The notes beneath the pieces are model-generated. The model did not search any database, was not told the origin of the DNA, and worked only from the letters and a program-made list of their open reading frames with translations. A DNA stretch of 64,000 bases from Candidatus Kaiserbacteria bacterium RIFCSPHIGHO2_01_FULL_46_22 (GTDB lineage Bacteria; Patescibacteriota; Minisyncoccia; Phycocordibacterales; UBA918): positions 22,279 through 86,278 of the forward strand of contig MFKO01000002.1 of the NCBI GenBank assembly GCA_001779595.1, in the 5' to 3' direction. A program made the position numbers and the translations under genes. Shown here one piece after another: positions 5,929 through 64,000 of the stretch. Positions within the stretch are counted from its first letter, which is position 1, and each line of letters starts with the position of its first letter.

Positions 5929-6793
5929 AAAAGTTGTCACAGCAGGATTAATACTGCTAGTGATTTGTGTTGGTGTTTTCGTATTCTTCTTTAAGCAGAC
6001 GGAGGAATATATTCCTCAAGTTGTGAATGAACCAGAGGAAGCAATTACAGTTCGACACGAGGTTATAGGCACATCCGTTGAGGGTCGTACTATCGACGCT
6101 TACACTTATGGCGATGGTGAAACACATCTTCTGTTTGTGGGTGGAATCCACGGTGGGTACGAATGGAACAGTGTCGTGCTGGCATACGAAATGATGGATC
6201 ATTTTGAAGAAAATCCAGAGCTTATTCCGCAAAATGTGTCGGTCACTATTGTGCCCTCTGCCAATCCAGACGGTCTCTTTGCTCGGGTTGGTATAGAAGG
6301 CCGCATTACTTCACTCGACGTGCCAGCTGAAACAATAAGTGGCGAGGGACGGTTCAACGCCAATGATGTTGATCTTAATCGCAACTTCGACTGCAAGTGG
6401 CAGCCTGAAAGTATGTGGCGTGGAAAAGTTGTGAGTGCTGGAACAGCTGCATTCTCAGAACCGGAGGCGCAGGCTATACGTGATATCGTTTCTGCAACCA
6501 ACCCTGTGGTTGTGGTGTTCTGGCACAGTCAGGCAAATGCTGTTTACGCATCGGAATGTGAAGAGGGAATTTTGTCTGGCACGCGAGCGGCGATGAATGT
6601 GTATGCAACTGCCGCGGAATATCCGGCAGTGGATGTGTTTGACAGCTATCCGGTCACTGGCGATGCAGAAGGCTGGCTGGCGTCGATCGGCATACCGGCG
6701 ATTACAGTAGAATTGGCGACTCATGAAAGTACTGAATGGAGCCGGAATTTGGCCGGCGTGATTGCGCTAATAGCGTCTTATAAAGGAAACTAA
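5903..6793 (+). CDS. M14-family zinc carboxypeptidase-like protein, membrane-anchored (paralogue 2)
   Basis: Same motif set (GGIHGGYEWN, PSANPDG, DVDLNRNFDCKWQ); ATG at 5903 (MNLPTF...) chosen; overlaps the stop of paralogue 1 by ~26 nt in another frame. Confidence 0.55.
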   Translation: MNLPTFLNKKVVTAGLILLVICVGVFVFFFKQTEEYIPQVVNEPEEAITVRHEVIGTSVEGRTIDAYTYGDGETHLLFVGGIHGGYEWNSVVLAYEMMDHFEENPELIPQNVSVTIVPSANPDGLFARVGIEGRITSLDVPAETISGEGRFNANDVDLNRNFDCKWQPESMWRGKVVSAGTAAFSEPEAQAIRDIVSATNPVVVVFWHSQANAVYASECEEGILSGTRAAMNVYATAAEYPAVDVFDSYPVTGDAEGWLASIGIPAITVELATHESTEWSRNLAGVIALIASYKGN

Positions 6794-6826
6794 CGTTATC
6801 CGTTGGTGGTATATACTTGATTTGTA

Positions 6827-7249
6827 ATGCAAGAATTCTTTAGAAAAATATACGATTTTTTTGAAACTCTCCCTGATCGTCTTTATCCTTTTGCGAGTGA
6901 GATAGAAGGACGTTGGGTTAGAGGAAGGAGGTCTTACCTGCACGCGCTCAATCATGCTGTTCTAACTTATGGCCCGCATCGGTTTGGTTACAAGCTGACC
7001 GTCTATCGCGCTACTTTTCATTTTCTTGGAGCTGTATTATTTATCATATTTGCGGCGTTGATATCTCAAAAACTCCTTGGCAGTGAGGCGGCGCTTTATG
7101 TCCTGTTGGGTGCAGCAATAGTTGCGTTATTTCTTCAAGAATTTCATTTTCATCCAAAGCGGTACGGACAATCCAGACAAAAAGGCGTCATCGACTGGCT
7201 TACGTGGGTAATTCCAATGGTGGTCTATATTTCTATCCATACGTTATAG
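6827..7249 (+). CDS. Hypothetical small membrane protein
   Basis: Two or three hydrophobic helices; no recognised domain. Confidence 0.35.
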   Translation: MQEFFRKIYDFFETLPDRLYPFASEIEGRWVRGRRSYLHALNHAVLTYGPHRFGYKLTVYRATFHFLGAVLFIIFAALISQKLLGSEAALYVLLGAAIVALFLQEFHFHPKRYGQSRQKGVIDWLTWVIPMVVYISIHTL

Positions 7250-7309
7250 AGTCCGAGCAGGTGATTCATACGGTACTGTGAGAAACATCAATAACATTCA
7301 AATAAAAAA

Positions 7310-7344
7310 GCCGGGCGCGTGAGCGTCCGGCGTATTGTTTTTTT
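7310..7344. terminator. Rho-independent terminator (possibly bidirectional)
   Basis: gccgggcgc-gtga-gcgtccggc hairpin (one mismatch) followed by a T-run; sits between convergent ORFs. Confidence 0.65.
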
Positions 7345-7575
7345 GTCGATTCGTCACATCCGGCTCACATAGTGTCGCAATGCCGGAGTATATTCGGTCG
7401 ACATTTCCGCAAACACGACCGCGCTTATTACGAGACTGGCGCCTAGTGCGACCAAGATCAAGTTTCTCATTGGATTCCTCCTGACTTTACTCAGTACACA
7501 CCCGTTCATTGGTTGTGTCAAACACGGTAGTAATAAAAAACCATCGATCACTTCAGACTTAACCTCCATCACCGT

Positions 7576-8550
7576 ATGTTAAAATCGTGGCTAATGAAGA
7601 ATCTACTTCTCGGCATCATTGGATCCTGCGCGGTTGTTTGTATTACATGGTATCCAGCTACCGCTTCGGCCGTGATTTCGGTGCAAAATGAATCTTCACG
7701 CGCTGTCAGTGTTGCTGATGAGAAAAAAATACAAGATGCAACTGTAAATCTTTATTGTCGGACAAAGGTCGGCAACAAAGAAGTCAGCTCAACCGGTAGT
7801 GGCGTACTGATAGATTCTCGGGGCATCATTCTTACAAACGCTCACGTGGCCCAATATTTTCTCTTAAACGGTAAGGATTCGAAACTGACAGCTAATTGCA
7901 GTGTACGCACCGGTTCTCCGGCAAAAACGAGCTATAAAGCAGAAGTACTCTATATGCCAAAGAGTTGGCTGACGGAAAATGCTAGTAAATCAACAAAAGA
8001 ATTTTCTAAGAGCACTGGAGAAAATGATTTTGCCATACTTTACATTTCTGATGCAGAAAAAGGTGAGCTTCCAGAACAGTTTCCAACACTCGCACTTGGT
8101 ATCCTTGTACAGCTGAAGAAAGATGACGCCGCCACTGTGGCGGGGTATCCAGCCGGTAGTCTAAAATTCAATGATGTACGTAATAAATTAAAATTTCTTT
8201 CGGCCAGTACTACGATCACTACGACACAATCTTTTCAGTCCGGCACGGTTGATTTGATCAGTCTTTCTCCTTCCAAAGTAGCAAGTGCTGGAGTTTCAGG
8301 TGGTCCAGTGGTGTCGTCGAGTACTGTGATTGGTCTTGCGACCACTATGGGTACATCAAAAAAGAAAGAAGGAGCGAGCCTGCGTGCCATTACAGTTCCT
8401 TATATTGATAGGGTAGTGCGTGCGGAAACAGGTTTGTCGCTAATGTCTATATACAGCACAGATTTATCCAACCGGGCAGCGACTACACGAGCTGGCCTAT
8501 CAGCCAAAATGTTTACAGCTATCGAAAAACGTCTTCGGGCCACTAGGTAG
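7576..8550 (+). CDS. Secreted trypsin-like serine protease (S1 family)
   Basis: ILTNAHVA (His motif) and GVSGGPVV (GDSGGP-like Ser motif); N-terminal signal/TM. Confidence 0.55.
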   Translation: MLKSWLMKNLLLGIIGSCAVVCITWYPATASAVISVQNESSRAVSVADEKKIQDATVNLYCRTKVGNKEVSSTGSGVLIDSRGIILTNAHVAQYFLLNGKDSKLTANCSVRTGSPAKTSYKAEVLYMPKSWLTENASKSTKEFSKSTGENDFAILYISDAEKGELPEQFPTLALGILVQLKKDDAATVAGYPAGSLKFNDVRNKLKFLSASTTITTTQSFQSGTVDLISLSPSKVASAGVSGGPVVSSSTVIGLATTMGTSKKKEGASLRAITVPYIDRVVRAETGLSLMSIYSTDLSNRAATTRAGLSAKMFTAIEKRLRATR

Positions 8551-39170: not shown

Positions 39171-39216
39171 ATAATCACACAAAACTCCAGATGTTCGTTT
39201 TGTGTTCATTATTTTG

Positions 39217-39303
39217 CGGAGGGTGAGGGATTTGAACCCTCGAAGGAGTTTCCCCCTTACCGCCTTTCCAAGGCGGCGCACTAGACCACTATGCGAACCC
39301 TCC
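39217..39303 (-). tRNA. tRNA-Ser (anticodon GGA), type II with long variable arm
   Basis: Reverse complement folds as a cloverleaf: acceptor GGAGGGT/ACCCTCC, anticodon stem CCGCC/GGCGG with loop TTGGAAA, long variable arm, T-arm GGGTTCAAATCCC; CCA not encoded. Confidence 0.8.
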
Positions 39304-43934: not shown

Positions 43935-44531
43935 TTGAGAAAAGCGTATAATTTCAAGATGGCCGCAGAGACAGCATCGCCCTCGGACAACGAGGTAGTC
44001 AAACTAGCGCTCGAAGAGCGGTCGTCCTTTGGCCTTATCGTAGAGCGGTATCAGGAAAAGTTGTCCCGTTATGTTACCCGTCTCGGAATCAAGGATTCGG
44101 ACGACCGCGATGATGTTCTTCAGGAAGTGTTTATAAAAGTTTATCGCAACTTAAATGATTACGATGAGCATTACTCATTTTCTGCTTGGATTTACCGCAT
44201 TGCGCACAACGAGGCAATTTCTTGGTATCGTAAGAAGAAGGTAAGGCCAGAGGGCAACTTGGTGGTGGACAGTGAAGAGGTTTTGGCTTTTTTAAATAAT
44301 AATGAAGAAGACGCCGCTGTGCGTCTTGATCAAAAAATCAACGCTGCATATTTAGAGGACGCGCTTGCAAAGCTTGATCCTAAATACCAAGCCGTATTAA
44401 TTCTCCGATATTTTGAACATCTTGAGTATGAAGAAATATCTGATGTGCTTGAGTTGCCGACCGGTACAGTTGGCACTTTAATTCATCGTGCCAAGAAGCA
44501 GCTTCGTGAAGCCTTAGAAAAATATGAGTGA
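43935..44531 (+). CDS. ECF-type RNA polymerase sigma factor (sigma-70 family)
   Basis: Region 2 (...VFIKVYRNLNDYDEHYSFSAWIYRIAHNEAISWYRKK...) and region 4 (...EEISDVLELPTGTVGTLIHRAKKQLRE...). Confidence 0.75.
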   Translation: MRKAYNFKMAAETASPSDNEVVKLALEERSSFGLIVERYQEKLSRYVTRLGIKDSDDRDDVLQEVFIKVYRNLNDYDEHYSFSAWIYRIAHNEAISWYRKKKVRPEGNLVVDSEEVLAFLNNNEEDAAVRLDQKINAAYLEDALAKLDPKYQAVLILRYFEHLEYEEISDVLELPTGTVGTLIHRAKKQLREALEKYE

Positions 44532-45477
44532 TACACAAAAACAACCAAATAAAGACTTAAAAGAAAGTGTTCTTTCACGCTTGGAGAAAGAGGGAATTGA
44601 GCCCCGCTCACGCCTTTATTGGCTTTCACACGAATACGCCCTTTGGGGCGCTTGGGGTCTTGCGGTATTGTGCGGCGCCTTGGCGCTTTCGGTAGCTTCT
44701 TTTGCCTCTTTGCACATAGGCTACGCACTATATGAGGCTTCACATAACGATTTTCTAACCTTCGTCTTTGACGCCCTGCCTTATCTCTGGCTGGTAGCTT
44801 TCTTCTTACTAATAGCTGTTTCCTATTTCAATCTCAGGCACACTAAAAGAGGCTATCGCTACCCGATCATTCTAGTGGTGGGCAGTAGTATTGGTTTTAG
44901 TGTTCTTGGCGGTGGTTTCCTTCACTGGCTGGGTGCTGGTTGGTATTTTGATCAAATGTTGGGTGAAATAGTGCCTGCGTATCAATCAAGGGCTAAGTTT
45001 GAAGAGGAAATCTGGCAAAAACCGATGGCGGGACGTTTAGTTGGTAAAGTGGTTCAGCAGCCCGAAGAAGTTGATTATGCTGCTTTTGTAGATGCAGAAG
45101 GAGAGTATTGGCGTCTTAATACTGAAGAGTTGCGTGAACATGACGTTGATTTACTTCAAAGCGGTCGAAAGGTCCGCATCTTGGCCGCTACCTCCAGCGA
45201 GTTCGCTGAAGGTTCGCTTTATGTCTGTGCCGTTTTTCCTTGGATACTCGACCACGCTCCCGGTCTCAAGGAATGGCGCGCTGATCGGGCAGGGTTTATC
45301 GAAGACGTAAAGGCGTCTAAGGAAATGATCCACATCATACGTACTCCATCAGGTGAGGGCAGACCAAACGATATTCCTCCACCTGAAGTGATGGAAAAAG
45401 TTGCTTCAGAAACCTCTTCACGTTGCTACAACTTGTCCGTTTTCAAACGCGCCAGGCCGGGCATTGTGGCGGAATAG
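44524..45477 (+). CDS. Putative membrane-spanning anti-sigma factor (by position)
   Basis: Start overlaps the sigma stop by 8 nt; 4-5 TM helices; no recognisable domain. Confidence 0.35.
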   Translation: MSDTQKQPNKDLKESVLSRLEKEGIEPRSRLYWLSHEYALWGAWGLAVLCGALALSVASFASLHIGYALYEASHNDFLTFVFDALPYLWLVAFFLLIAVSYFNLRHTKRGYRYPIILVVGSSIGFSVLGGGFLHWLGAGWYFDQMLGEIVPAYQSRAKFEEEIWQKPMAGRLVGKVVQQPEEVDYAAFVDAEGEYWRLNTEELREHDVDLLQSGRKVRILAATSSEFAEGSLYVCAVFPWILDHAPGLKEWRADRAGFIEDVKASKEMIHIIRTPSGEGRPNDIPPPEVMEKVASETSSRCYNLSVFKRARPGIVAE

Positions 45478-45694
45478 TGCCAAAAAGTACGGCAAAGAAA
45501 ACATAGTCACGACTTAATTATGGATTACTGTCAAGCTTACTAAGTTCTGGCGTACTGCTAGAATGCAGACATTATGAACGCAGAACTCATACCTCTTCGG
45601 GGGTCTGTTTTACGAAAGCATCTCGGCATTTTTTAATTGCCTAGATGCTTTTTGCGTTCAAATATCCAAATTTAAAAATTTTTATACCAATTAT

Positions 45695-48600
45695 ATGAAT
45701 TCCCACACCGCGCACTTCTTGAACCGAGTTCTTTCATTTGTGACCATAATCGCTCTCGTTTTGGTCATGGTGCCGGTTTGGCCACAGATAGCACATGCAG
45801 ATAATCTTTTTTCCACGAGCTTCGAAGGAACTCCGCCACTTGATGAATGGACAAGTGACGATCCTCATTGGGGAGTAAACGCGAGTGATTCAAGAACTGG
45901 CTCAAAGCAGGCGCAAGCAGTGGGAAGTAATTCTGGCGCCGGGACTCTTCTCAAAGAAGTCAGTACGGAGGGCTACGAAAACATCTCTCTAAGTTTTTGG
46001 TACAAACAGCTAGGCATGGACGTTGGCGATAGTATTACAGTGGAATGGTTTGATGGATCAAGTTGGAACCCTGTAACCGCAATCAATGGGCTTGAACTTG
46101 AGGCGGACGACGATGCTGTGTGGGTTGAGTGGTCAGGACTTCTGGGTTCCGAAGCTGACGACAACACCGCCTTTGCCGTAAGGTTTGTGTCGAATATGAA
46201 TTCCGCTGGGAACGATAAGTTTTTCTTAGAGGACGTTAATCTAGAGGGTGAAGAGGAAGAAGTTGTGGGGCCTGTTCCAGATTGTAGTCTCACAGACAGC
46301 GTGTCGATGACTACTTTTGACACTTTTGCTACAGGTACTGTAAATGCGCAAAACTCATGGAGCTCAACTGGCTCTTATGACCAGGAGGTTGTTCCAAATA
46401 CTTATGGCTTTGAAGAGTTCGGTTGTAAATCACTTCGCATCTCAAATGCTGTAACAAGCGGTGCTTTCGGGAATCAGACGTTTGCCGCTCCAACTGCGGG
46501 TACAGCAGGCGAATCAAGTGTTGCGGCCAATAATCATTTTGAGGCAGAGTTTGATATTGCTTCAACAATGCCTGGTTTGCAGTCAGGTCTGACACTTTCA
46601 GTGTCTCCTGATGACGGAAATGGTTCACGTATGAGCTATTTGAGCTTCACTGACACCGCAGATGGTATCGATGTGGTCTTTTATGACGTAACAAACACCG
46701 GCCCTCTTCCGAGCGTAACTTCATGGAATGATACAGAAGTTGCAACACTTGATCGCGATGAGTCCCATACAATCAAATTTGTAATGGACTTCGTAGATGG
46801 TCCAGGTAACGATGTTGTGAAGATTTATATAGATGACGTACTTGCACATACAGGCACCAGCTGGGAGGACTATTATCGCTATGACGCAGAACAAAACGGC
46901 AACGGAAACGCATTGTTCGGAGTAGATACTCTTATCTTCCGTGCTGGAGGGACAGCTGTTCCTGCAAACGATAGCAACGGTTTCCTGTTCGACAATATGT
47001 CTATGTCAGTTTCAGACATTAGTTCTGGCAGCAGTACTTCTGAAACCATAGTGGTTTCCAGCAACACATCTGCAGGTGAGAATCTACCAGGATGGATGTT
47101 CAACCGTGATCCAGGCACAGATACTCCATTTGTGTTCAACACTGATCAATCATCTATCGGTGCTGGTAGTCTCTACGTGTTGCCGATTGGCTCATCTAGC
47201 CCAAGCGATAAATTTATCGCGGAGAACTTCATCAATGCACCAATTGCCGATGTCGATTCTATTTCTTACGACTTTATGATCGGCAGTGGCGGCGAGAACA
47301 CTGATGAGGAACAGTTCTATATGAATGTATACGCCAACTTCGGCGTATCTGACGACAATAAGTTTTACGACTGTCGATACAACATCGTGCCAACAACTGG
47401 TTCTACTGGCGGATTTACGACTGTTACATTTGACCCAAATCAGAGCTATCCAGTTACCACCCGAACCGGAGGCTCTGCGTCACCATTTACCTGTCCTTCT
47501 GTACCAGCTCAGATGGATAACTTAAGTCCAGGCTCCAATATCCGTGTCTTCTCCCTAAATCTTGGTGATACCACCGTGAGCGATGAAGGTATAGACGGTT
47601 ACTTTGATCGAGTGGTTACAGTTATTGACGATGGAGACAATACTCATACCACCACTTATGATTTCGATCCTGAATCTGAAGCTCCAACTGCCGCTGTAAC
47701 AATGTGTAAGTACAATCCATCTGAACAGACAATGGATGGTTGGACTTTGATGTTGGAGGGTGAACATATAGAAGACGTTGTTGTGCCAGCTGGCGCTATT
47801 GGAGGTATAGACACCACCGCTTCTCTTGAGGCTGGTAAGTCCTACTTCGCGGTAGTAAATGGCGTATGGCTAAACGATCGTACTCCTGACAATCACGTGG
47901 ATGCAGAGTACTCAACTGAAGACAGTTGGCTTACTCAAATGGACGGATTCACTGGTTACGGTGAAAACATTCTTGATCTACAAGTAGGAGAAGAGTTTGT
48001 AGAATGGGGTCCATACAACAGCACTCATACTTACTCAGCATCATTCACTCCAAGTGTTGATGGCTCTGTGAACTTCCGTATCTTTGACGGTACAGGCGAC
48101 ACACCGAATGCTTCTTGGTACGGAGATAACTCTGGTTCACTCAGCGTATCTATTTATGAAGGTTTTGCCGGAGTAACTGACGATGGTTGTGTTACTTTCG
48201 ATGCTGTACCTTACGGTTCCTATGAAGTTGACGAAGTGATGCAGGAAGGTTGGGTCAACACATTTGGTCTTGTAGAGGTTGAAGTAGATGAACCGACTGA
48301 AGAGTTCAATGTAGTAAACGATGAGATTGGCGAACCAGAAATGTGTTACGTGACAGTTGTTTCAGATGAGAGCAACTATGTAGAAGAAACTGAAGACGAT
48401 GCGGAATTGACTTGGGCGCATCCAGCCTGGACTGCTGTGATCGACTTGGCTGAATGGATCTGGGGTACTGAAAATGTAGAAGATCCAACTGTTACTGAAG
48501 TACAGACTTTTGTTAAAACATTTGAATGGAGCGGCGGTGTTGCATCTTCATCACTTGTAATCGCTACTGATAACTTCTATGAAGTTTACCTAAACGGCAA

Positions 48601-50524
48601 CTTCGTAGCTTCGAGTACAGAAGCCAGCCTCTTCACTGATGCAAACAAGGACACGATTGATGTTTCTGGCTTTATTGAGATGGGAGAAAACACTTTGGAG
48701 ATCAAGGTTACCAACCTCGGTGTTCCAGGCAGCTCACCTACCAGCAATCCAGCTGGTTTGAAATACAACCTCACTGTTGTATCAGACGAAGAGGGTGAAG
48801 ATTGTATGTATGCTCCTGACGAACCTAGTCTTGAGATCACTAAGCCAGAAATAGATGACATGGTACTGGCTGGTATTTACACCTTTGAAGCTGAATACGT
48901 TGATGCAGATGAAAACCCTGATCCTGTACAGTGGGCGATCCGTGCTGGTACTTGTAACGCAGGTACAAACACTGTTGCAGGAAACGTTGATGGATTCTTT
49001 AGCTCATCAACACCACACACATGGAATGGAGCAAGCTTCTCTAGCACCATTGATATGAGTGACTGGGATGATGGCGAATACTGTTTCGTCGTTAATCCAA
49101 CTGAAGATGGCGGCACAAACTTCCGTGAGACTCGTCTATTTACTCTTGAAAACGCTGCACCTACACAATGTCTAGTAGTGAGCGACACAAGTACTGTAGT
49201 GGTAGAGAACAACAATTACGCTGTTGCTACTTGGGATGAGCATCATAACTGGACTCATGACATTCTTGGAGCTACTTGGATCTGGGATAACCTCTACGTT
49301 GTAGATCCTGAGGCTACAACCACGTTAACCTTCAAAGAATCATTTACTGCAACTGATATTGAAGAAGCGTCGTTTGAAATCGCAACCGACAATGCATACA
49401 AGGTATTCATTAACGGTGTATTGCGATATGAGCAGTCAAACTCCAACAACTTCCAAACTCCTGATGAGCATGAGGACGTCCTCGACTTCCTAACTGAAGG
49501 AGAAAACGAACTACTTGTAGAAGTGACCAACTTCGCAGTGGAAGACAGTATTCCTAAGACCAACCCAGCTGGAGCGTTGTTCAAACTAGATATGGAAGTT
49601 GGTGGTGTTTGTGAAATCACTACTGACCTAGAGGATGAATCAGAACCTCAGCCTGAAATCGGAGAGAATGAAGTCTTTGGCTTCGTCTGGGTGGACGATA
49701 ATGAAGATACCTCTAAGAATAACGACGAAGACTATCGCTCAGGTATCGGTATTTCGATTAATAATGGTTCAACCACAGTTTCTACCAGCACTGATGCAGG
49801 TGGTCGTTACTTCTTTAACATCGATGATGGTAGCTGGACTATCAGTGCCACAACTGGAGGAGAGTGGAGTCTAACTTACCCGTCTGATAACGGTGGTGAA
49901 CACGACGTCAGTGTAAGCACTAGCTCTGGTCCTTATGACTTCGGTATTGTCGAAAACGGTTCTACCGATGGAGGTGGTGACGGTGATGGGGATGGCAATG
50001 GCGATGGGGACGGTGATGGCGACGAAGGTGGCGGAACTGGTGGTGGCGACACAACTATCGATTCACCTAGTGGCGATGCCGGCGGTAACCCACAAATAGC
50101 TGGCGTTACGACAAGTGGCGGCCTCTTCTCACGTGGAGATTCTGGTCCGGACGAAAAGGTATTGGGTGAAAGTACTTCGACCGAAGATGGAACAGATGAC
50201 TCTATTGAAGAATCGACATCCACAGCAAAAGCTTTGACTGCAATGGTAGATTGGATTGATGAGTGCTGGTACTGGTGGCTCTTGGTCTTCGCTTGGATCG
50301 TATCAAGCGGCGTTGTTTACTACTGGAAAGGTTGGAGCAATGAACCAATTTCTCTAATGAGCGTTGAACTATTGTTCAGTATTCTTGGATTGCTTGGACT
50401 GATGTCCTACCTAGTGTTTGGCTTACATTGTGCATTGTGGCCTTCTCTAATCACTATGTTGGGCTCAGCGATACTGTACTATGTCAATAACCGTGAGATC
50501 CCTTCGTCCAAGACCGTGCTATGA
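45695..50524 (+). CDS. Giant (1609 aa) cell-surface protein with N-terminal signal/TM, internal duplicated beta-rich domains, DG/NG repeat and C-terminal TM anchor
   Basis: Signal-like N-terminus; two ~120-aa paralogous segments; (DG)n/(NG)n low-complexity; C-terminal hydrophobic helices. Confidence 0.6.
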   Translation: MNSHTAHFLNRVLSFVTIIALVLVMVPVWPQIAHADNLFSTSFEGTPPLDEWTSDDPHWGVNASDSRTGSKQAQAVGSNSGAGTLLKEVSTEGYENISLSFWYKQLGMDVGDSITVEWFDGSSWNPVTAINGLELEADDDAVWVEWSGLLGSEADDNTAFAVRFVSNMNSAGNDKFFLEDVNLEGEEEEVVGPVPDCSLTDSVSMTTFDTFATGTVNAQNSWSSTGSYDQEVVPNTYGFEEFGCKSLRISNAVTSGAFGNQTFAAPTAGTAGESSVAANNHFEAEFDIASTMPGLQSGLTLSVSPDDGNGSRMSYLSFTDTADGIDVVFYDVTNTGPLPSVTSWNDTEVATLDRDESHTIKFVMDFVDGPGNDVVKIYIDDVLAHTGTSWEDYYRYDAEQNGNGNALFGVDTLIFRAGGTAVPANDSNGFLFDNMSMSVSDISSGSSTSETIVVSSNTSAGENLPGWMFNRDPGTDTPFVFNTDQSSIGAGSLYVLPIGSSSPSDKFIAENFINAPIADVDSISYDFMIGSGGENTDEEQFYMNVYANFGVSDDNKFYDCRYNIVPTTGSTGGFTTVTFDPNQSYPVTTRTGGSASPFTCPSVPAQMDNLSPGSNIRVFSLNLGDTTVSDEGIDGYFDRVVTVIDDGDNTHTTTYDFDPESEAPTAAVTMCKYNPSEQTMDGWTLMLEGEHIEDVVVPAGAIGGIDTTASLEAGKSYFAVVNGVWLNDRTPDNHVDAEYSTEDSWLTQMDGFTGYGENILDLQVGEEFVEWGPYNSTHTYSASFTPSVDGSVNFRIFDGTGDTPNASWYGDNSGSLSVSIYEGFAGVTDDGCVTFDAVPYGSYEVDEVMQEGWVNTFGLVEVEVDEPTEEFNVVNDEIGEPEMCYVTVVSDESNYVEETEDDAELTWAHPAWTAVIDLAEWIWGTENVEDPTVTEVQTFVKTFEWSGGVASSSLVIATDNFYEVYLNGNFVASSTEASLFTDANKDTIDVSGFIEMGENTLEIKVTNLGVPGSSPTSNPAGLKYNLTVVSDEEGEDCMYAPDEPSLEITKPEIDDMVLAGIYTFEAEYVDADENPDPVQWAIRAGTCNAGTNTVAGNVDGFFSSSTPHTWNGASFSSTIDMSDWDDGEYCFVVNPTEDGGTNFRETRLFTLENAAPTQCLVVSDTSTVVVENNNYAVATWDEHHNWTHDILGATWIWDNLYVVDPEATTTLTFKESFTATDIEEASFEIATDNAYKVFINGVLRYEQSNSNNFQTPDEHEDVLDFLTEGENELLVEVTNFAVEDSIPKTNPAGALFKLDMEVGGVCEITTDLEDESEPQPEIGENEVFGFVWVDDNEDTSKNNDEDYRSGIGISINNGSTTVSTSTDAGGRYFFNIDDGSWTISATTGGEWSLTYPSDNGGEHDVSVSTSSGPYDFGIVENGSTDGGGDGDGDGNGDGDGDGDEGGGTGGGDTTIDSPSGDAGGNPQIAGVTTSGGLFSRGDSGPDEKVLGESTSTEDGTDDSIEESTSTAKALTAMVDWIDECWYWWLLVFAWIVSSGVVYYWKGWSNEPISLMSVELLFSILGLLGLMSYLVFGLHCALWPSLITMLGSAILYYVNNREIPSSKTVL
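48419..48790 (+). repeat. Intragenic domain repeat, copy 1 (…HPAWTAVIDLAEWIWG…TNPAGLKYNLTV…)
   Basis: Shares WxxxxxxxxxWIW, …FExxxxxxxSSLxIATDNxYxVxxNGxxV…, …KDTxDxSxFxxxGENxLxxxVTNxxV…TNPAG… with copy 2; approximate coordinates. Confidence 0.55.
49240..49615 (+). repeat. Intragenic domain repeat, copy 2 (…HHNWTHDILGATWIWD…TNPAGALFKLDM…)
   Basis: See copy 1; approximate coordinates. Confidence 0.55.
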
Positions 50525-50547: not shown

Positions 50548-51537
50548 ATGAAGGATTATTCTAGGCGTCTATTCGTTCCGAACGAAGCCAATAATTTCCA
50601 ACCCCACAGTCTGCAGAAAGCAGCTATGGTAGGGATGTTGGTGTTGACCCTGATTACCTTCTCAGTAGTGAATTTACAGTCGATACTTTGGCTGGCATCT
50701 GAATATTTGGTGGCCGCTGTACTGCCAGCTGTCGTACTCGAAGAGACAAATGCGTCGCGTGAACGCGAGCAACTACCGACGCTTCGAAGAAATTCAGAGC
50801 TCGATGAAGCGGCGCGTTTAAAGGCAGAGAATATGGCCGAGGTAGGATACTTCTCACACTGGAGTCCGGATGGTATTTCTCCGTGGCATTGGTTTGAAGA
50901 GGTAGGATATAGCTACGCTCATGCAGGAGAAAATTTAGCCGTGCACTTCACTGATTCTACCGCGGTCGTGGATGCCTGGCTCAATTCTCCTTCGCACCGC
51001 GCCAATATATTGAACGAGCAGTACACAGAAATGGGAATCGGTACGGCAGTAGGGCAGTTTGAAGGTTATGACACAGTGTTCGTGGTCCAATTGTTCGGTG
51101 CGCCCGCGGCGGCCATACCGGTCGTGGAGCCCGCTGATACCCTAGGCGCTACGGCGGATACTCCCCTTACGGAGGACGTGGCCGCCGCAGGCGCACCGAC
51201 AATCGCTGGAGAAAGTGATGATGTAAGAAATGTCGAATTAACAGAATCTGGGACAGTGGTTTTGGAAAGTTTTGCTACCACTTCCGACAAGACAGCTCTG
51301 GCTGCCACAGCAGCCCCGTCTGGATTTTGGAAGTTAGCCACATCTCCGCGTATGGTTCTGCAGATTGTGTATTCGATGATCGGACTGTTTGTAATGGGTG
51401 CGCTACTAATGGCTCTGGTACTCGAATGGCGACGGCATCATCCAATACAGATCGCTTACAGCGCAGCGCTACTTGCTGTAATGATCGTACTTTTTGAGAT
51501 ACACCTAGTTTTCTCTGGTGCCGTTACGATAGCTTAA
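50548..51537 (+). CDS. CAP/SCP (cysteine-rich secretory protein-like, YkwD-type) domain protein with C-terminal TM anchor
   Basis: ...GYFSHWSPDG...YAHAGENLA...AWLNSPSHRANIL...EMGIG... CAP motifs. Confidence 0.65.
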   Translation: MKDYSRRLFVPNEANNFQPHSLQKAAMVGMLVLTLITFSVVNLQSILWLASEYLVAAVLPAVVLEETNASREREQLPTLRRNSELDEAARLKAENMAEVGYFSHWSPDGISPWHWFEEVGYSYAHAGENLAVHFTDSTAVVDAWLNSPSHRANILNEQYTEMGIGTAVGQFEGYDTVFVVQLFGAPAAAIPVVEPADTLGATADTPLTEDVAAAGAPTIAGESDDVRNVELTESGTVVLESFATTSDKTALAATAAPSGFWKLATSPRMVLQIVYSMIGLFVMGALLMALVLEWRRHHPIQIAYSAALLAVMIVLFEIHLVFSGAVTIA

Positions 51538-51576
51538 TGACTTAGGTAGCAAGACGCGGAGGAGCTCTAATCTTAT

Positions 51577-51879
51577 ATGGGAAAGGTTTTTAACGTGATG
51601 AAAGACGAAACGAATGATCGACCTCTCGACATTCATGACTACTTAGTAAAACATCCAGCCTCCACATTTTTTATGAAGATGGAAGGAGACGGTCCTGAAG
51701 GAAGTGGTATTGAGGAAGGAGATGTATTGGTAGTTGATCGCTCTGTAACCGCAAAGCGCGGCAGTATTGTTGTGATGACTGAAGATGGTGAATTAAAGGT
51801 CACTAAATTTCCTTCATCAGATGACTCTGCAGAGTCATCTTTGTGGGGTGTAGTAATAGGATTACTGCGTAATTTTTAA
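51577..51879 (+). CDS. umuD: UmuD'-like (peptidase S24 C-terminal domain) protein lacking N-terminal arm and with Gly at the nucleophile position
   Basis: Aligns to E. coli UmuD from about residue 30: KHPASTFFMKMEGDGPEGSGIEEGDVLVVD vs [30 protein letters not shown]; Ser of GDSM is Gly here; Lys (KVTKF) retained. Confidence 0.6.
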   Translation: MGKVFNVMKDETNDRPLDIHDYLVKHPASTFFMKMEGDGPEGSGIEEGDVLVVDRSVTAKRGSIVVMTEDGELKVTKFPSSDDSAESSLWGVVIGLLRNF

Positions 51880-51895
51880 AGCGTATAATTCCTAG

Positions 51896-53155
51896 GTGAA
51901 TCTTTTTGGATTGGTGGATTGTAATAATTTTTTCGTCTCGTGTGAGCGGTTGTTTAGACCTGACCTAATTGGTCGGCCGGTAGTCGTACTCGGTAGTAAT
52001 GATGGCGTAGTGGTGTCGCGAAGCGAAGAAGCCAAAAAGTTTGGCGTGCCGATGGGCGTTCCGTTTTTTAAAGTGAGAGATATTGTGAAAGATAATAAGA
52101 TCACTCTTTTCTCATCCAACTTTGAACTATATCGAGATGTGTCCGACCGGATTATGTTTGTGCTCCAAGAAGAGCTTGGTGAAATTTACCAATACTCTGT
52201 CGACGAAGCGTTTTTTCAGTTTACAGAGAAAAGCAGCGCCGTGGCGAAAATACAACTCACCGATTTAAAACAGACTATTGAAAAGAAAATTGGAGTACCT
52301 GTCTCGCTTGGTGCTGGCAAAACCATGACAATCGCCAAGTACGCTAGTGAAATGGAAAAAAGAAAAAGTGGCGTATGTGTTCTTTCAGGCACGGCGTGGC
52401 AAAAGTTAACGCCGCAGATACCACTTAGTGAAATTTGGGGCATTGGTGGGAAAACCTCCGTTAATATGCGTAATCATAAACTCAACTTCGTAGCGGATTT
52501 GTTATCCGCACCTGAAAGTTTCATTAAGGAAGAGTATGGCGTGCACGGGCTCCGACTTCGTTCAGAATTGTCCGAAAATCCTGCCCATCAACCTACTGAA
52601 CGTGAAGGACTGCAGAAAAGTATTATGCATACTCGGTCGTTTTCTAAAACGACAGAATCCTTAGCCGCCTTAGAAACTGCTGTGACATTCCATATTGAGC
52701 GGGCGGCCGAAGAACTGAGAGCTATTGGAGGAAAGGCTGGGTCACTTTCGGTGCAAATTCAAACGAGCCGTCATGGTGATTGGCTTCTTCAGAGCGGTAG
52801 ACAAGAAATAATTCTGCCAGCACCGATGTCTGACACCAGAACTTTGTTGCGCTATGCGTTGTCTTTGACAAAAGCTCTGTATCGCAGTGGGGTGCCGTAC
52901 AAAAAAGCTGGTGTCGTGTTGGGCCGCATCATATCCGAAAATTTTGTACCGGTATCACTGTGGGATCAGTATGAAAAAACTGATGAAGATGCGCTGCTGA
53001 TGAATGTTATAGATAATCTAAATGCAGAATGGGGGAATGACGCAGTAACTTTCGGTCGTCTGAAAAAAGGGGGTCAACTGGATCACGATCAACATCGTTC
53101 ACCCAGGTACACTACTAGCTGGAATGAAGTGCGAAAAGTTGAAAGAAAAATATGA
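51896..53155 (+). CDS. umuC: Y-family DNA polymerase (UmuC/DinB-like)
   Basis: MNLFGLVDCNNFFVSCERLFRPDLIGRPVVVLGSNDGVVV... Y-family N-terminal signature; immediately downstream of umuD'. Confidence 0.8.
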   Translation: MNLFGLVDCNNFFVSCERLFRPDLIGRPVVVLGSNDGVVVSRSEEAKKFGVPMGVPFFKVRDIVKDNKITLFSSNFELYRDVSDRIMFVLQEELGEIYQYSVDEAFFQFTEKSSAVAKIQLTDLKQTIEKKIGVPVSLGAGKTMTIAKYASEMEKRKSGVCVLSGTAWQKLTPQIPLSEIWGIGGKTSVNMRNHKLNFVADLLSAPESFIKEEYGVHGLRLRSELSENPAHQPTEREGLQKSIMHTRSFSKTTESLAALETAVTFHIERAAEELRAIGGKAGSLSVQIQTSRHGDWLLQSGRQEIILPAPMSDTRTLLRYALSLTKALYRSGVPYKKAGVVLGRIISENFVPVSLWDQYEKTDEDALLMNVIDNLNAEWGNDAVTFGRLKKGGQLDHDQHRSPRYTTSWNEVRKVERKI

Positions 53156-53159
53156 AAGG

Positions 53160-53197
53160 CTAACGGCCGGCCTGCAGGCCGGCCGTTAACTAATTTT
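53160..53197 (+). terminator. Rho-independent terminator
   Basis: taacggccggcctgcaggccggccgtta perfect palindrome followed by a T-rich run. Confidence 0.8.
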
Positions 53198-58773: not shown

Positions 58774-58807
58774 GCGGGCAACTCAAATTGCCCGTCTTTT
58801 TTTATTG
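58774..58807 (+). terminator. Rho-independent terminator
   Basis: ggcgggcaa-ctcaaa-ttgcccgtc (one G.U pair) followed by TTTTTTTTAT. Confidence 0.75.
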
Positions 58808-58832
58808 CCCAACTTCGGATACACTGAGGCCA

Positions 58833-60866
58833 ATGAAATTTGAGCTCGCAACTGACAAAACACCAGCTGGTGATCAGCCACAAGCTATAGAGAAGCTAAT
58901 CGCTGGATTGAAGGCTGGAGCAGAACACCAGACCCTACTTGGTGTGACTGGCTCCGGTAAGACCTTTACCGCGGCCAATGTGATAGCTTCTGTGCAGAAG
59001 CCTACTTTGGTGATCGCCCATAACAAAACTTTGGCTGCTCAGCTAGCGCAAGAATATCGTGACTTTTTTCCTAATAACGCAGTGCACTACTTCGTTTCTT
59101 ATTACGACTACTACCAGCCGGAAGCCTATATGCCGGTGTCCGACACCTATATTGAGAAAGAAGCTCAAATCAATAAGGAAATCGACCGCCTACGTCATGC
59201 TAGTACTCAGGCATTGCTGACGCGCAAGGATGTAATTATCGTAGCTTCGGTTTCTTGTATCTATGGTTTAGGTTCACCGATTGAGTACGAAAAAGTACAT
59301 AAAAAATTTGAGAAAGGTTTTAAAACCAATCGAGCAGAACTTTTGCGCACTTTAGTTTCGATGTATTTTGAACGAACTACCGCTGATCTGATGCCGGGCC
59401 ATTTTCGCGCTGTCGGCAACACTGTGGAAATAATGCCCACCAACGAGAAGGCAATCTATCGCCTAAGCTTTGATGGTGATGTCGTCTCCAGTATCACTAA
59501 GATTGATGCAACGACGCGAGCTATCATTGAAGAATCGGAAAACTTTTTTCTTTTTCCTGCTAAGCATTTCGTTACTCCAGAAGCAGAAAGAGCACGAGCG
59601 ATTGAAGACATTAAGTTAGAACTAGACGAGCAGCTAAAGAAATTTAAGAAGGAAGAAAAGCTGTTGGAAACAGAGCGTTTAAAGCGTCGTACTGACTACG
59701 ACCTCGCAATGATTCGAGAGATCGGTTACTGCAATGGCATTGAGAACTACTCAAGGCATTTCGATGGACGACAGGTGGATGAACCGCCTTATACCTTGCT
59801 CGATTATTTCCCACACAAAGCGGATGGATCTGCAGACTTTCTAACCATTATCGATGAGTCGCACGTAACTATTCCTCAGATCGGTGGTATGTACGCTGGA
59901 GACCGCGCGCGCAAGGATACTTTGGTTGACTATGGTTTTCGCTTGCCAAGTGCAAAAGATAACCGACCGCTGAAGTTTGATGAGTTTGAAAAACGAGTTG
60001 GTCAGCGTATTTACACCTCTGCAACGCCAGGCAAATACGAGTTTGAGAAAGCAGAGACCACGGGATTTCCGATGGTTGAGCAAATCATCCGCCCGACTGG
60101 CTTGGTAGATCCAGAAATTGACCTGCGACCGATTGTTGAGAAAGGCAGTTACCCCGGACAGGTAAAGGATTTCATTGAGGAAGCTGAAAAAATAATCAAA
60201 GGGGGAGCACGCGTGCTTACTACTGTACTCACCAAACAGATGGCTGAAGACTTGGCTGAATTCCTTGAAGGAAAAGGAATCAAAACCAAATACATTCACA
60301 GCGATGTTGAGACATTGGAGCGAATTGAAATTTTGACAGACTTCCGCAAAGGAGTGTTTGACTGTCTCGTTGGAGTGAACCTACTTCGTGAAGGACTCGA
60401 CTTACCAGAGGTTGAGCTTGTGGCAATTCTAGATGCTGACAAGACGGGTTTCTTGCGCAGTGAGACGGCCTTGATTCAGACTATCGGTCGTGCCGCACGT
60501 AACGTAAATGGTCGCGTGATTCTATATGCTGACGAAATCACAAAAGCTCTAGAATTTGCGATAGGCGAGACTAATCGCCGCCGTAGCATCCAGCTGGCTT
60601 ACAACAAAGAACACGGCATTACACCGCAAACCATCAAGAAAGAAATAAAATCAATTGCCGATCAACTCCGAACTGTACACGACGAAACTGTTCATACGCT
60701 GCTTACTGTAGATATGGATTTGTTTAAAAAGAATCCTAAGAAAGTTCTGAAAGAAAAACGCCAGCAAATGAACGAGGCGGTTTCTCTTCTCGACTTCGAA
60801 ACCGCCGCCATCATTCGAGACGAGATCAAAGTTTTGGAGGAGTCTGCCAATCGCAAGAAAAAATAA
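58833..60866 (+). CDS. uvrB: Excinuclease ABC subunit B
   Basis: ...LLGVTGSGKTFTAANVIA... Walker A, helicase motifs, C-terminal UvrB/UvrC-interaction helix; ATG at 58833 preferred. Confidence 0.9.
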   Translation: MKFELATDKTPAGDQPQAIEKLIAGLKAGAEHQTLLGVTGSGKTFTAANVIASVQKPTLVIAHNKTLAAQLAQEYRDFFPNNAVHYFVSYYDYYQPEAYMPVSDTYIEKEAQINKEIDRLRHASTQALLTRKDVIIVASVSCIYGLGSPIEYEKVHKKFEKGFKTNRAELLRTLVSMYFERTTADLMPGHFRAVGNTVEIMPTNEKAIYRLSFDGDVVSSITKIDATTRAIIEESENFFLFPAKHFVTPEAERARAIEDIKLELDEQLKKFKKEEKLLETERLKRRTDYDLAMIREIGYCNGIENYSRHFDGRQVDEPPYTLLDYFPHKADGSADFLTIIDESHVTIPQIGGMYAGDRARKDTLVDYGFRLPSAKDNRPLKFDEFEKRVGQRIYTSATPGKYEFEKAETTGFPMVEQIIRPTGLVDPEIDLRPIVEKGSYPGQVKDFIEEAEKIIKGGARVLTTVLTKQMAEDLAEFLEGKGIKTKYIHSDVETLERIEILTDFRKGVFDCLVGVNLLREGLDLPEVELVAILDADKTGFLRSETALIQTIGRAARNVNGRVILYADEITKALEFAIGETNRRRSIQLAYNKEHGITPQTIKKEIKSIADQLRTVHDETVHTLLTVDMDLFKKNPKKVLKEKRQQMNEAVSLLDFETAAIIRDEIKVLEESANRKKK

Positions 60867-61641: not shown

Positions 61642-61800
61642 AGCGCATCTCCGTTTCTGTTGTAAGGTACCGCCTAGTAAAAATATGAACCTTATACATT
61701 TAAGCGTCAAGTCTCTCCTCATCTGTGCCAGAAAAAACACTTTATGCTATACTCGCTTCCGTAATAAAACCTTCGGCTCCAACCGGAGGCGGTGTGCTAT

Positions 61801-64000
61801 ATGGCTGTAAAAAAGACCAAAACAGAGATGAACGAAAGAAGCGAGAAAATCGTGGTGCGTGGTGCGCGTACCCATAATTTGAAGAACATTGACGTTGAGA
61901 TGCCTCGCGGGAAAATGATTGCCATCACCGGACCATCTGGTAGCGGCAAGTCTTCGCTGGCATTCGACACCATTTTTGCTGAAGGACAGCGTCGTTATGT
62001 GGAATCGCTTTCGCCTTACGCACGACAGTTTTTGAACAAACTGCAAAAGCCAGATGTCGATGAGATCAGCGGTCTTTCACCGGCTATCTCGATCGATCAG
62101 AAGTCTGCTAGCCGCAACCCGCGCTCCACTGTTGCAACTATTACGGAGATTTATGATTACCTTCGTATTCTTTATGCTCGAGTTGGTCAACCATACTGTC
62201 TTACCGAAGATGTGGCGATCGAGAAGCTTTCACAAGATGAGATTCTTGGCATTGTACTGAAGTCAATCGAAGAGCATGAAGTGAAGGACGCGAAGAAGGA
62301 AAAAGTGTTGGGAATTGAAGTTTCGAAAGGAAAGGTGGCAATTTTTGCACCATTGGTTGTTGGTCGTAAAGGCGAGTACTACCAGTTGCTTTATGATTTG
62401 CTCAACAAAGGTTACGAAACAGTGAAGATCGACGGACAAGTTAAACAACTTCGTGAACGAATTGAACTGAAGAAAAATCAACGACACGATATCGACGTGA
62501 TGATTGATGCTATTTACGTGAGCGAATTCACTGATGATGCCCGAGGTTCACGCGAACGATTGTCAGAAGCAGTCGAATTGGCACTCAAAGAATCGAATGG
62601 TTTGGTAAAAGTGGAGCGACCGGATGGTACTGACCGAACGCTTTCAGCCAAATTCATTTGCCCTATTGACGGCTCGTCTTTTCCAGAGGTTGAACCGCGA
62701 CTCTTTTCATTCAACTCACCTTACGGAGCTTGTCCAGAATGTAACGGTCTTGGAGTCGTAGGTATTTTCCAATCTGATGAGTGTCCGGCCTGTAAGGGTG
62801 CACGTCTGCGTCCAGAAGCCCTTCGTGTTTATCTAGGTGGTGGACCGAAAGACGGAAAGAACGTCGTTGATTTCACTAATATGTCGGTCAATGAGGCGAG
62901 TGACTTTATTGCAAAGTTAAAACTCACTAAGCAACAGCAGGATATCGCTTGGCCAGCCTTGCGCGAGATCATTGAACGCCTAGAGTTTATGAAAAACGTC
63001 GGTATCCAATACCTGACTCTCAATCGTCGTGCCAACACACTTTCTGGCGGCGAGGCACAACGTATTCGTCTTGCTTCTCAGTTAGGAAGTGGATTAGTTG
63101 GCGCGCTTTACGTGCTTGATGAACCTACTATTGGTCTTCACCAACGTGATAATGATCGTTTGATCAGCACGCTCACTTCACTCCGCGATCTCGGCAACAC
63201 CATCATTGTGGTGGAGCACGATGAGGACACTATTTACGCTGCAGACTACCTCATCGATATTGGTCCTGGCGCCGGTGTACATGGAGGAGAAGTAGTAGTA
63301 GCTGATTACTTGGAAAAACTACTCTCTGATAAGAAGAATGAGTCTGGTTCAATTACACTCGATTACTTGCGTGGAGATAAAAAGATCGAGATACCAGAGC
63401 GTCGAGACAGCGAGAAGGGCAAGATTCAGATTAAAGGCGGCAAGGCTTTTAATATCAAGAACTTAAATGTCGATATTCCTCTTGGTCGGTTGATTGCAAT
63501 CACTGGCGTGTCTGGTAGTGGCAAGTCCACTTTTATGTACGAGATTTTGCATAAAAATCTTTTGGCGCGGCTGGAGCGTCGTTATCGTACGGCGAAAACA
63601 TTCAACGTAGCTTCGATCACTGGCACCGAATACCTTGGCCGTTCAGTTCTTATTGACCAATCACCGATCGGACGAACACCACGTTCGAACCCGGCTACAT
63701 ACACCGGTGCCTTCACTCATATACGAGATATGTTTGCCGCTACGGGAGAAGCACGAGCCCGCGGTTGGAAACCTGGACGCTTCTCATTCAATGTTAAAGG
63801 CGGACGCTGTGAGGCTTGTCAGGGTAATGGCGAGATTGCAGTTGAGATGCACTTTTTGCCAACTGTGTATGTGACCTGTGATGTTTGTGACGGAAAACGA
63901 TTTACAAAGGAAACTCTCGAGGTTACTTATCGTAAGAAAAATATTTACGAAGTTCTTCATCTTACTATTGAAGAGGCTTACAACTTTTTTAATGATGTTC
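61801..64000 (+). CDS. uvrA: Excinuclease ABC subunit A, 5' part (continues past window end)
   Basis: MAVKKTKTEMNERSEKIVVRGARTHNLKNIDVEMPRGKMIAITGPSGSGKSSLAFDTIFAEGQRRY...; later LSGGEAQRIRLASQLGSGL and GVSGSGKST; no in-frame stop seen to 64000 (absent from the ORF track, presumably because it is open-ended). Confidence 0.9.
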   Translation, partial: MAVKKTKTEMNERSEKIVVRGARTHNLKNIDVEMPRGKMIAITGPSGSGKSSLAFDTIFAEGQRRYVESLSPYARQFLNKLQKPDVDEISGLSPAISIDQKSASRNPRSTVATITEIYDYLRILYARVGQPYCLTEDVAIEKLSQDEILGIVLKSIEEHEVKDAKKEKVLGIEVSKGKVAIFAPLVVGRKGEYYQLLYDLLNKGYETVKIDGQVKQLRERIELKKNQRHDIDVMIDAIYVSEFTDDARGSRERLSEAVELALKESNGLVKVERPDGTDRTLSAKFICPIDGSSFPEVEPRLFSFNSPYGACPECNGLGVVGIFQSDECPACKGARLRPEALRVYLGGGPKDGKNVVDFTNMSVNEASDFIAKLKLTKQQQDIAWPALREIIERLEFMKNVGIQYLTLNRRANTLSGGEAQRIRLASQLGSGLVGALYVLDEPTIGLHQRDNDRLISTLTSLRDLGNTIIVVEHDEDTIYAADYLIDIGPGAGVHGGEVVVADYLEKLLSDKKNESGSITLDYLRGDKKIEIPERRDSEKGKIQIKGGKAFNIKNLNVDIPLGRLIAITGVSGSGKSTFMYEILHKNLLARLERRYRTAKTFNVASITGTEYLGRSVLIDQSPIGRTPRSNPATYTGAFTHIRDMFAATGEARARGWKPGRFSFNVKGGRCEACQGNGEIAVEMHFLPTVYVTCDVCDGKRFTKETLEVTYRKKNIYEVLHLTIEEAYNFFNDV

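Follow-up and report, generated by a model that had tools for sequence, protein, structure and literature searches.

The window analysed here is the whole stretch of 64,000 nucleotides (nt) from Candidatus Kaiserbacteria bacterium RIFCSPHIGHO2_01_FULL_46_22, a member of the Patescibacteria (GenBank assembly GCA_001779595.1, contig MFKO01000002.1, positions 22,279 to 86,278 of the forward strand), and all positions given for it count from its first letter. It carries a small gene, which we call mini-umuD', directly upstream of umuC, the gene for a Y-family DNA polymerase of the UmuC type; these two genes are the subject of this study. In Escherichia coli, UmuD must cleave itself with a Ser/Lys dyad to give UmuD' before DNA polymerase V (Pol V) is activated. 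Textbooks describe RecA*-stimulated cleavage of UmuD as the post-translational safety catch that restrains the most mutagenic of bacterial polymerases. A sequence-only reading of the window had proposed that this catch is missing here, in that the small gene encodes a constitutively activated UmuD' which cannot and need not cleave itself. The locus is laid out as follows.

51558 to 51563, forward strand: Shine-Dalgarno-like GGAGGA, 14 nt upstream of the ATG, read from the sequence
51568 to 51570, forward strand: in-frame TAA stop, three codons upstream of the start, read from the sequence
51577 to 51879, forward strand: mini-umuD', encoding a 100-residue protein of S24 fold (open reading frame (ORF) list, Pfam, NCBIfam, PDB sequence matches, AlphaFold2 (AF2) model)
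51577 to 51624, forward strand: N-terminal arm, residues 1-16, MGKVFNVMKDETNDRP, predicted to be disordered yet conserved; its F5 aligns with F26 of UmuD'
51691 to 51696, forward strand: Gly39-Pro40, replacing the Ser60-Met61 of the nucleophile motif (GDSM to GDGP) in an ungapped alignment
51784 to 51795, forward strand: D70-G71-E72-L73, corresponding to D91, G92, E93 and F94 of UmuD, including RecA*-groove contacts; retained
51802 to 51804, forward strand: Thr76 at the position of the general base Lys97, in the register of the ungapped UmuD alignment
51811 to 51840, forward strand: short acidic linker, residues 79-88, PSSDDSAESS, standing in for the UmuD beta-hairpin of about 18-20 residues
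51835 to 51867, forward strand: C-terminal strand, residues 87-97, SLWGVVIGLLR, homologous to DVFGVVIHVVK of UmuD' and predicted as a strand over the same residues
51896 to 53155, forward strand: umuC, encoding a UmuC-type Y-family DNA polymerase of 419 residues; GTG start, 16 nt after the mini-umuD' stop
52997 to 53137, forward strand: C-terminal extension of UmuC, DUF4113, residues 368-414, with a RecA-NT-like motif, LLMNVIDNLNAEWG, and the tail SPRYTTSWNEV

The GenBank entry identical to mini-UmuD' is OGG41799.1, labelled 'hypothetical protein A2837_01125'. In the Pfam scan the 100-residue protein matched Peptidase_S24 (PF00717) only, with 41.2 bits (cut-off 23.3); neither a LexA_DNA_bind domain nor a match to PF08863 (YolD/YqjX) was found in it, and TIGR00498 (LexA) is matched in the C-terminal domain alone (30.7 bits, cut-off 110.95). 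A sequence search of the PDB puts UmuD' and UmuD at the top (E ~2e-13) and LexA at E ~1e-2. In that search 65 residues align with UmuD without a gap at an offset of +21, placing residue 1 on UmuD residue 22 and F5 on F26. The earlier view that the S24 protein begins about where UmuD' begins is borne out by this alignment, the N-terminus sitting 3-4 residues ahead of that of UmuD'.

We collected a short family consisting of the window protein and 52 further clusters (clustered at 90% identity) that are 55-77% identical to it, 53 in all, whose members are mostly 98-103 residues long. Aligned to canonical arms of the type PAA/GFPAPGDD (the slash marking the cleavage site), the F5 of this family falls on the Phe that follows the cleavage-site Gly. 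All 48 sequences that have the position carry F5, and 50 of 52 carry K9. Only small residues (G, A, P or S, 47 of 47) occur at position 2, so removal of the N-terminal Met is expected, and judging from the alignment the mature N-terminus of the short form would be G-K-V-F where UmuD' has G-F. No upstream in-frame extension exists for mini-UmuD': it is excluded because the TAA lies three codons before the start and the preceding gene ends at 51537, 39 nt away. We therefore find it hardly credible that the truncation is an artefact of gene calling or assembly and that the real protein is longer (by an upstream start, a frameshift or readthrough) and cleavable. Six of the 53 members are indeed called 7-16 residues shorter and a few longer (P0042 with 110 residues, P0060 with 111), as start-calling noise would have it, but the start M-G/A-K-V-F is common to independent assemblies with unrelated upstream spacers, and Ser and Lys would stay absent even with an extension.

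The same ungapped alignment puts G37-D38-G39-P40 on G58-D59-S60-M61 of UmuD (the codon of G39, ggt, is nt 51691-51693). That GDSM reads GDGP had been noticed in the window protein, and it holds throughout the family: Gly occupies the nucleophile position in 53 of 53 members, and no alignment places a Ser there. T76 aligns with K97, which PDB chain 8gmt_B (K97A) confirms as the catalytic Lys; across the family this column holds E in 30 members, Q in 11 and K never. Neither residue of the Ser-Lys dyad (S60 and K97 of UmuD) is thus kept, and the Cys/Ala-Gly cleavage site and the N-terminal leader segment of about 24 residues are both missing as well. Furthermore, when mini-UmuD' is aligned with both E. 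coli UmuD and longer homologues, a gap of about 18 residues appears over UmuD ~100-120, a beta-hairpin, with 24 residues following the K97 column versus 42 in canonical UmuDs. Mini-UmuD' cannot self-cleave, because the substrate bond, the nucleophile and the base are all gone, and this half of the sequence-only reading stands. The other half, that it need not, is plausible, because the alignment of the protein starts at the UmuD' N-terminus and its gene is linked to umuC. Nohmi et al. reportedly showed in 1988 that mutagenesis becomes independent of Ser60 once UmuD' is supplied in engineered form. The loss of Lys97, the deletion of the hairpin and the precedent of phage P1 HumD, discussed below, come on top of the Ser loss that the sequence-only reading had described.

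Relatives do share the truncation, in all 53 clusters, and the family does not look like a gene on its way out. Thirteen residues are invariant in its alignment, W90, G91, G95 and R98 among them, and G39 and P40 are unchanged in 53 of 53 clusters. This pair is fixed although the catalytic function of the motif it replaces is gone; residues 37-38, next to it, vary freely. In codon comparisons within the family, the proportion of nonsynonymous differences (pN) is 0.15-0.29 against 0.69-0.94 for synonymous ones (pS), the synonymous sites being saturated; the sole unsaturated pair gives a ratio of nonsynonymous to synonymous rates (dN/dS) of ~0.10. Neither a dN/dS near 1 nor frequent frameshifts or stops were seen among the short-family relatives. 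As judged from these sequences, the short form is under purifying selection and is conserved, not decayed. One could still argue for a decaying umuD remnant, a pseudogene in progress beside a UmuC that works alone or is dispensable: the dyad, the hairpin and the N-terminus are all lost, the protein is labelled hypothetical and its scores lie under the NCBIfam cut-offs. We rate this very unlikely, because the 53 clusters share one architecture with G39-P40 fixed, no Lys in the K97 column and pN far below pS. Moreover, the ORF of about 100 residues is intact, pN stays low despite saturated synonymous sites, even the disordered arm is conserved, and a like architecture recurs beside umuC in unrelated clusters.

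In a scan of GTDB species genomes, the short form occurred in only four representatives, labelled Kaiserbacteria, Nomurabacteria, Patescibacteria UBA6201 and 'Saccharibacteria'. About 20 other Patescibacteria genomes, including that of Ca. Kaiserbacteria RIFCSPLOWO2_01_FULL_45_25 (locus L071), have a canonical UmuD with ~36-44% identity to the window protein over the core. These proteins are 138-188 residues long as called and look fully cleavable, carrying the leader, the cleavage site PAA/GFPAPGDD, GDSM, VVKRL and the hairpin. Their genes occupy the orthologous locus (L071; L012-L076), directly after a gene for a CAP-domain protein and upstream of umuC, with or without inserted genes before the latter, and their umuC products are 37-62% identical to that of the window, compared with 30-37% for other phyla. 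Because sister Patescibacteria hold the canonical protein at the same CAP-umuD-umuC locus, we conclude that a cleavable UmuD gave rise to the short form in place. On the alignments, four changes made it: the leader and the hairpin were lost, the Ser became Gly, and a variable residue took the place of the Lys; the clade of the window lost all four of the features that its sisters keep.

To compare folds, we built an AF2 model of mini-UmuD' on the family alignment and searched PDB structures with Foldseek. The model has a disordered arm (residues 1-11, predicted local distance difference test score (pLDDT) below 50), a single helix at 19-25 and five strands. Its top matches are UmuD' (1umu, 1ay9) and UmuD (8gmt), with template modelling scores (TM) of 0.67-0.70; the C-terminal domains of LexA and lambda CI rank behind them, and a viral fold library returned weak CI, LexA and UmuD matches. 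The C-terminal strand of the model is a candidate dimer-interface strand.

The partner polymerase appears complete. UmuC matches the Pfam families IMS (8e-33), IMS_C (5e-17) and DUF4113 (1e-10), and its best NCBIfam model is PRK03609 UmuC at 256.6 bits, under the cut-off of 431. In an alignment with solved Pol IV structures, the catalytic carboxylates match D8 and D103-E104 of UmuC, which indicates that umuC is catalytically intact. At the C-terminus, the annotated UmuC of an E. coli plasmid and relatives can be aligned over both the LMxVIDxLN..G motif and the SPRYTT tail. The first ~30 residues of DUF4113 form a RecA-NT-like motif that has been proposed to bind RecA, and the last ~28 residues of UmuC are its main UmuD'-binding site (PMC6511836). 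In the current model of Pol V, one UmuD' subunit is bound by the UmuC C-terminus, and the other reaches with its N-terminal arm between palm and little finger, near the active site (PMC12926913). The RecA*-groove contacts of UmuD are known from cryo-electron microscopy of RecA-UmuD to be Y52, F94, D91 and E93 (PMC9926225). The corresponding positions are well kept in the short family: D or E at 70 in 50 of 53 members, G71 in 52, E72 in 47 and L73 in 47, while F31, which corresponds to Y52, is found in 53 of 53. RecA-dependent activation of the polymerase probably persists, because UmuC keeps its RecA-NT-like motif and the groove-contact positions of UmuD are conserved. The sequence-only reading had held that translesion synthesis is not gated by RecA-mediated processing here. 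This is upheld for the cleavage step, but it does not extend beyond it: the gate set by RecA* as coprotease is lost, and RecA-ATP-dependent activation through UmuC probably remains.

Putting these observations together, we think it probable that the gene encodes a naturally pre-processed, catalytically dead and minimised UmuD'-type subunit for the adjacent UmuC, the two making up a Pol V-like translesion enzyme. After removal of the Met, the conserved arm (G/A-K/R-V/A-F...) would take the role of the UmuD' arm and insert into UmuC. The helix and the C-terminal strand, both retained and conserved in the family, would support dimerisation, and the UmuC tail would bind the mini subunit. The polymerase would then be assembled in its 'activated' composition upon translation, with RecA*-stimulated autocleavage playing no part. 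The UmuD-specific checkpoint and the Lon and ClpXP degron functions, housed in the missing 24 residues, would drop out. Control would rest on transcription, the pair looking co-transcribed with upstream envelope genes, and probably on transfer of RecA-ATP to UmuC.

Several points weigh against such a role. The curated NCBIfam model for the autoproteolytic subunit of Pol V (NF007621) gives mini-UmuD' 67.6 bits, under its cut-off of 110, and the curated HumD equivalog (NF051876) 38.7 bits, under 120; these are the best NCBIfam matches of the protein, both below threshold. The AF2 monomer has a pLDDT of 73, which is moderate confidence. Deletion of the hairpin could alter contacts with UmuC or within the dimer. 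The invariance of Gly39-Pro40 implies, as far as the alignment goes, a constraint beyond the mere loss of catalysis. In most relatives, finally, 0.3-3 kilobases (kb) of unrelated genes separate mini-umuD' from umuC, so the two do not always form a tight operon.

Some of these points would suit a protein that is functional without being an activator of the polymerase, such as a binder of the RecA* filament, a modulator of recombination, a brake on UmuC or a decoy for another S24 protein. Uncleaved UmuD is itself a brake on UmuC in E. coli. The conserved RecA*-groove contacts, the interposed genes together with the tighter coupling to the upstream CAP gene, and the hint of a new constraint in Gly39-Pro40 speak for this alternative. 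However, the 24 N-terminal residues behind the inhibitory and checkpoint behaviour of uncleaved UmuD are absent, the conserved arm aligns with that of UmuD', the partner UmuC keeps its UmuD'-binding tail, and other mini forms overlap or abut umuC, with no other UmuD seen at these loci. We thus hold a non-activating role to be improbable, if less so than artefact or decay, and prefer the pre-processed activator.

Comparison with known systems places the protein close to UmuD' and sets it apart at the same time. With E. coli UmuD and UmuD' it shares the fold (TM ~0.68), evident sequence homology (E ~2e-13), the position of the gene directly upstream of umuC and, with the cleaved product, its length and N-terminus. 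The helix, the TFF strand, the GD.LVVD strand, the DGE(L/F) strand and the C-terminal WGVV strand are common to UmuD' and the mini form. In contrast to E. coli UmuD, the mini form is without residues 1-21, the cleavage site, Ser60 (Gly), Lys97 (Thr here; Glu or Gln in most relatives) and ~18 further residues, and no SOS box was detected upstream of it in scans for three box types. A phage precedent for a pre-truncated UmuD' dates from 1999. HumD of phage P1 (the N15 gp26 / phiKO2 Gp23 type) has an ORF that is already truncated, starting M-GFPSPAADY at the UmuD' N-terminus, and by analogy offers a functional precedent for a UmuD' that is born activated. The GenBank record of P1 humD states that the product 'functionally complements E. 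coli UmuD'' and annotates a LexA site. Unlike mini-UmuD', the 129-residue HumD keeps the Ser (AADSH), the Lys (RIKRY) and a full-length C-terminal half including the hairpin region. It is also borne by a phage or plasmid with no cognate umuC and uses that of its host, whereas mini-umuD' is chromosomal and syntenic. The YolD/YqjX proteins, which serve the YqjW/UvrX polymerases of Gram-positive bacteria, embody the same concept of a small non-proteolytic accessory subunit. Their unstructured N-terminal arm inserts into the polymerase, and their core has an SH3-like beta-barrel (PMC6511836, PMC12926913). They show no sequence homology to the window protein, however, which is a derived S24 domain.

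Is the short family an isolated case? A profile search of the short family against 1.84 billion representative proteins, in which we classified the best 150 clusters, suggests otherwise; the query profile biases this list, which may include some fragments. Mini forms without leader and hairpin account for 54 of the best 150 clusters; both dyad residues are missing from 39 of them and one from 14, and a single one keeps both. The others are 30 full-length forms with partial or total dyad loss, 48 canonical forms and 18 tandem double-S24 proteins. Loss of the hairpin thus correlates strongly with loss of the catalytic dyad (53 of the 54 mini representatives among the best 150), and the joint loss shows parts of UmuD that exist only for self-processing. 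Four of the five other mini representatives that were looked up sit directly upstream of umuC, and some overlap or abut it; dyad-less mini proteins beside umuC are thus present in further metagenomic lineages. Among the mini forms, P0109, P0137, P0132 and P0116 begin right at a GFPSP-type arm.

Full-length UmuDs without the dyad also lie beside umuC, in metagenome-assembled genomes (MAGs) of Spirochaetia, Balneolaceae and Ferruginibacter (L045, L046, L061, L075). They keep the leader but have Ala or Gly for the Ser and Arg for the Lys, and their genes stand 0-68 nt upstream of umuC in Spirochaetia and Ferruginibacter and ~0.6 kb away in Balneolaceae. By sequence these UmuDs are apparently non-cleavable, in phyla outside the Candidate Phyla Radiation (CPR). 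The tandem double-S24 proteins (P0079-P0118, P0202, P0207) measure 220-285 residues. One of cultured origin is WP_050486416.1 on the Bacteroides ovatus plasmid NZ_CP041396.1, a 262-residue protein whose gene (L096, 2387-3175) is directly upstream of a Y-family polymerase gene. Its N-terminal half is a hairpin-less, dyad-less mini domain like the window protein; unlike the latter, which stands alone, this half is fused to a canonical domain with Ser, Lys and hairpin, and the site QA/GFPSP is kept. Its appearance is that of a UmuD pseudo-dimer joined covalently, and processing of it may still take place.

The window protein belongs to this broader and seemingly unnamed population of reduced UmuD derivatives. 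We found no publication that describes a stand-alone UmuD' without dyad and hairpin, nor one in CPR/Patescibacteria, many subscription papers lying outside the literature coverage; the related publications found concern UmuD', HumD, UmuDAb and YolD/YqjX. We are accordingly dealing with a conserved and apparently undescribed variant of the UmuD' system, pre-truncation as such being already known from P1 HumD. More tentatively, stand-alone mini-UmuD' proteins of ~90-115 residues, without leader, dyad and hairpin, might form a widespread, undescribed class of Pol V accessory that arose repeatedly from cleavable UmuD. In this Kaiserbacteria clade their genes might be transcribed with envelope genes and not from an SOS promoter, leaving the polymerase of these reduced-genome episymbionts free of both the LexA gate and the RecA*-cleavage gate. 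We regard this wider proposal as possible, though doubtful.

The mini-UmuD' of these CPR bacteria, chromosomal, lineage-wide, stripped of its protease and hairpin-less, is a useful natural experiment on what UmuD' needs. A chromosomal lineage has dropped the cleavage catch at the level of the gene, together with the protease apparatus and the hairpin, and the natural deletion series defines the minimal core that is seemingly needed, namely the arm, the helix, four or five strands and the C-terminal strand. The finding as a whole predicts cleavage-independent and possibly constitutive translesion synthesis in the CPR, which bears on mutation rates and genome evolution. Additionally, the NCBIfam UmuD and HumD models miss the mini forms and GenBank labels the window protein hypothetical, therefore surveys may under-count Pol V systems.

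Two further features frame the pair.

50548 to 51537, forward strand: gene for a CAP-domain membrane protein (Pfam CAP, 1.2e-16), its stop 39 nt before mini-umuD'
53161 to 53188, forward strand: strong intrinsic terminator, a GC-rich stem of 12-14 base pairs with a T run, directly after umuC, ending the co-directional array

From ~45.7 kb onwards, the array consists of the genes for a 1609-residue surface protein and the CAP protein, mini-umuD' and umuC, with short spacers up to the terminator. Neither a terminator-like site nor a sigma-70-like promoter was found between the CAP gene and mini-umuD'. This layout is compatible with co-transcription with envelope genes; constitutive expression is not proven by it. 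A CAP gene precedes umuD in seven of eight short-clade loci and in 16 canonical Patescibacteria loci. In Patescibacteria of the Paceibacteria type (L012-L076, L001-L010, L088, L089), umuD, whether canonical or mini, is nearly always found 5-40 nt after a CAP/SCP gene without a terminator between them, a conserved coupling of an envelope gene to the gene of a translesion synthesis subunit.

The sequence-only reading had noted no lexA and no obvious SOS box in the window, and our searches agree. Neither lexA nor recA was found by tblastn within the 64 kb. Scans of the window for GAAC-N4-GTTC (Gram-positive), CTGT-N8-ACAG (E. coli) and GTATAC-N3-GTATAC (the repeat upstream of a Dojkabacteria lexA) gave matches at or below chance, none near the operon; the LexA motif of this lineage itself has not been identified. 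No conserved operator or intergenic motif was seen upstream across nine short-clade and 16 canonical loci, most spacers after the CAP gene being 5-40 nt. A Dojkabacteria LexA (L067) used as query against a database of 5.8 billion proteins gave 120 listed matches, all of them LexAs of the Dojkabacteria type, which is uninformative on Kaiserbacteria. Some Patescibacteria do possess LexA, as the Ca. Dojkabacteria MAG L067 carries lexA-umuD-umuC at 5080-7700. The umuD of this MAG reads GSGM, without the Ser, and retains the Lys. Upstream of its lexA, the near-palindrome GGTATAC-CCC-GTATACC and a third GTATAC form a candidate LexA operator for that class.

Wherever a short-clade locus is long enough to tell, umuC follows downstream of mini-umuD' on the same strand, and no second UmuD was seen at these loci. 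The interval between the two genes is a variable cargo slot, of 16 nt in the window (51880-51895), -3 nt in L011 and 18 nt in L089. Larger slots lie at 10304-11940 in L001, 6310-8451 in L004, 6307-8831 in L005 and 6304-8233 in L006, and also in L012-L076; in non-CPR bacteria umuD and umuC abut. Canonical loci carry genes for GH18 chitinase-like and NUDIX proteins there, and short-clade loci genes of the peptidoglycan (PG)-binding/DUF4398, acetyltransferase, DUF924, EamA, DUF2103 or OmdA types. We considered these genes as a third component of the system and rejected them, as the cargo (GH18, NUDIX, PG-binding/DUF4398, acetyltransferase and others) varies by locus.

Other genes of the window deserve a brief mention. 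Genes of excision repair, uvrB (58788-60866) and the start of uvrA (61792-64000), are on the same strand as umuC, 6-9 kb downstream; the regions upstream of them showed no operator-like motif in common, and the order of TGT followed by UvrB is conserved in L001. Rfam and tRNA scans of the window returned a tRNA-Ser at 39216-39303 only. Upstream of the gene for the 1609-residue giant protein, which is secreted or anchored, the region 43935-50524 begins with a gene for a sigma factor of the extracytoplasmic function (ECF) type (43935-44531), followed by a gene whose 317-residue product could, at a guess, be an anti-sigma factor; the same order of sigma factor, 317-residue and giant protein genes is seen in L001.

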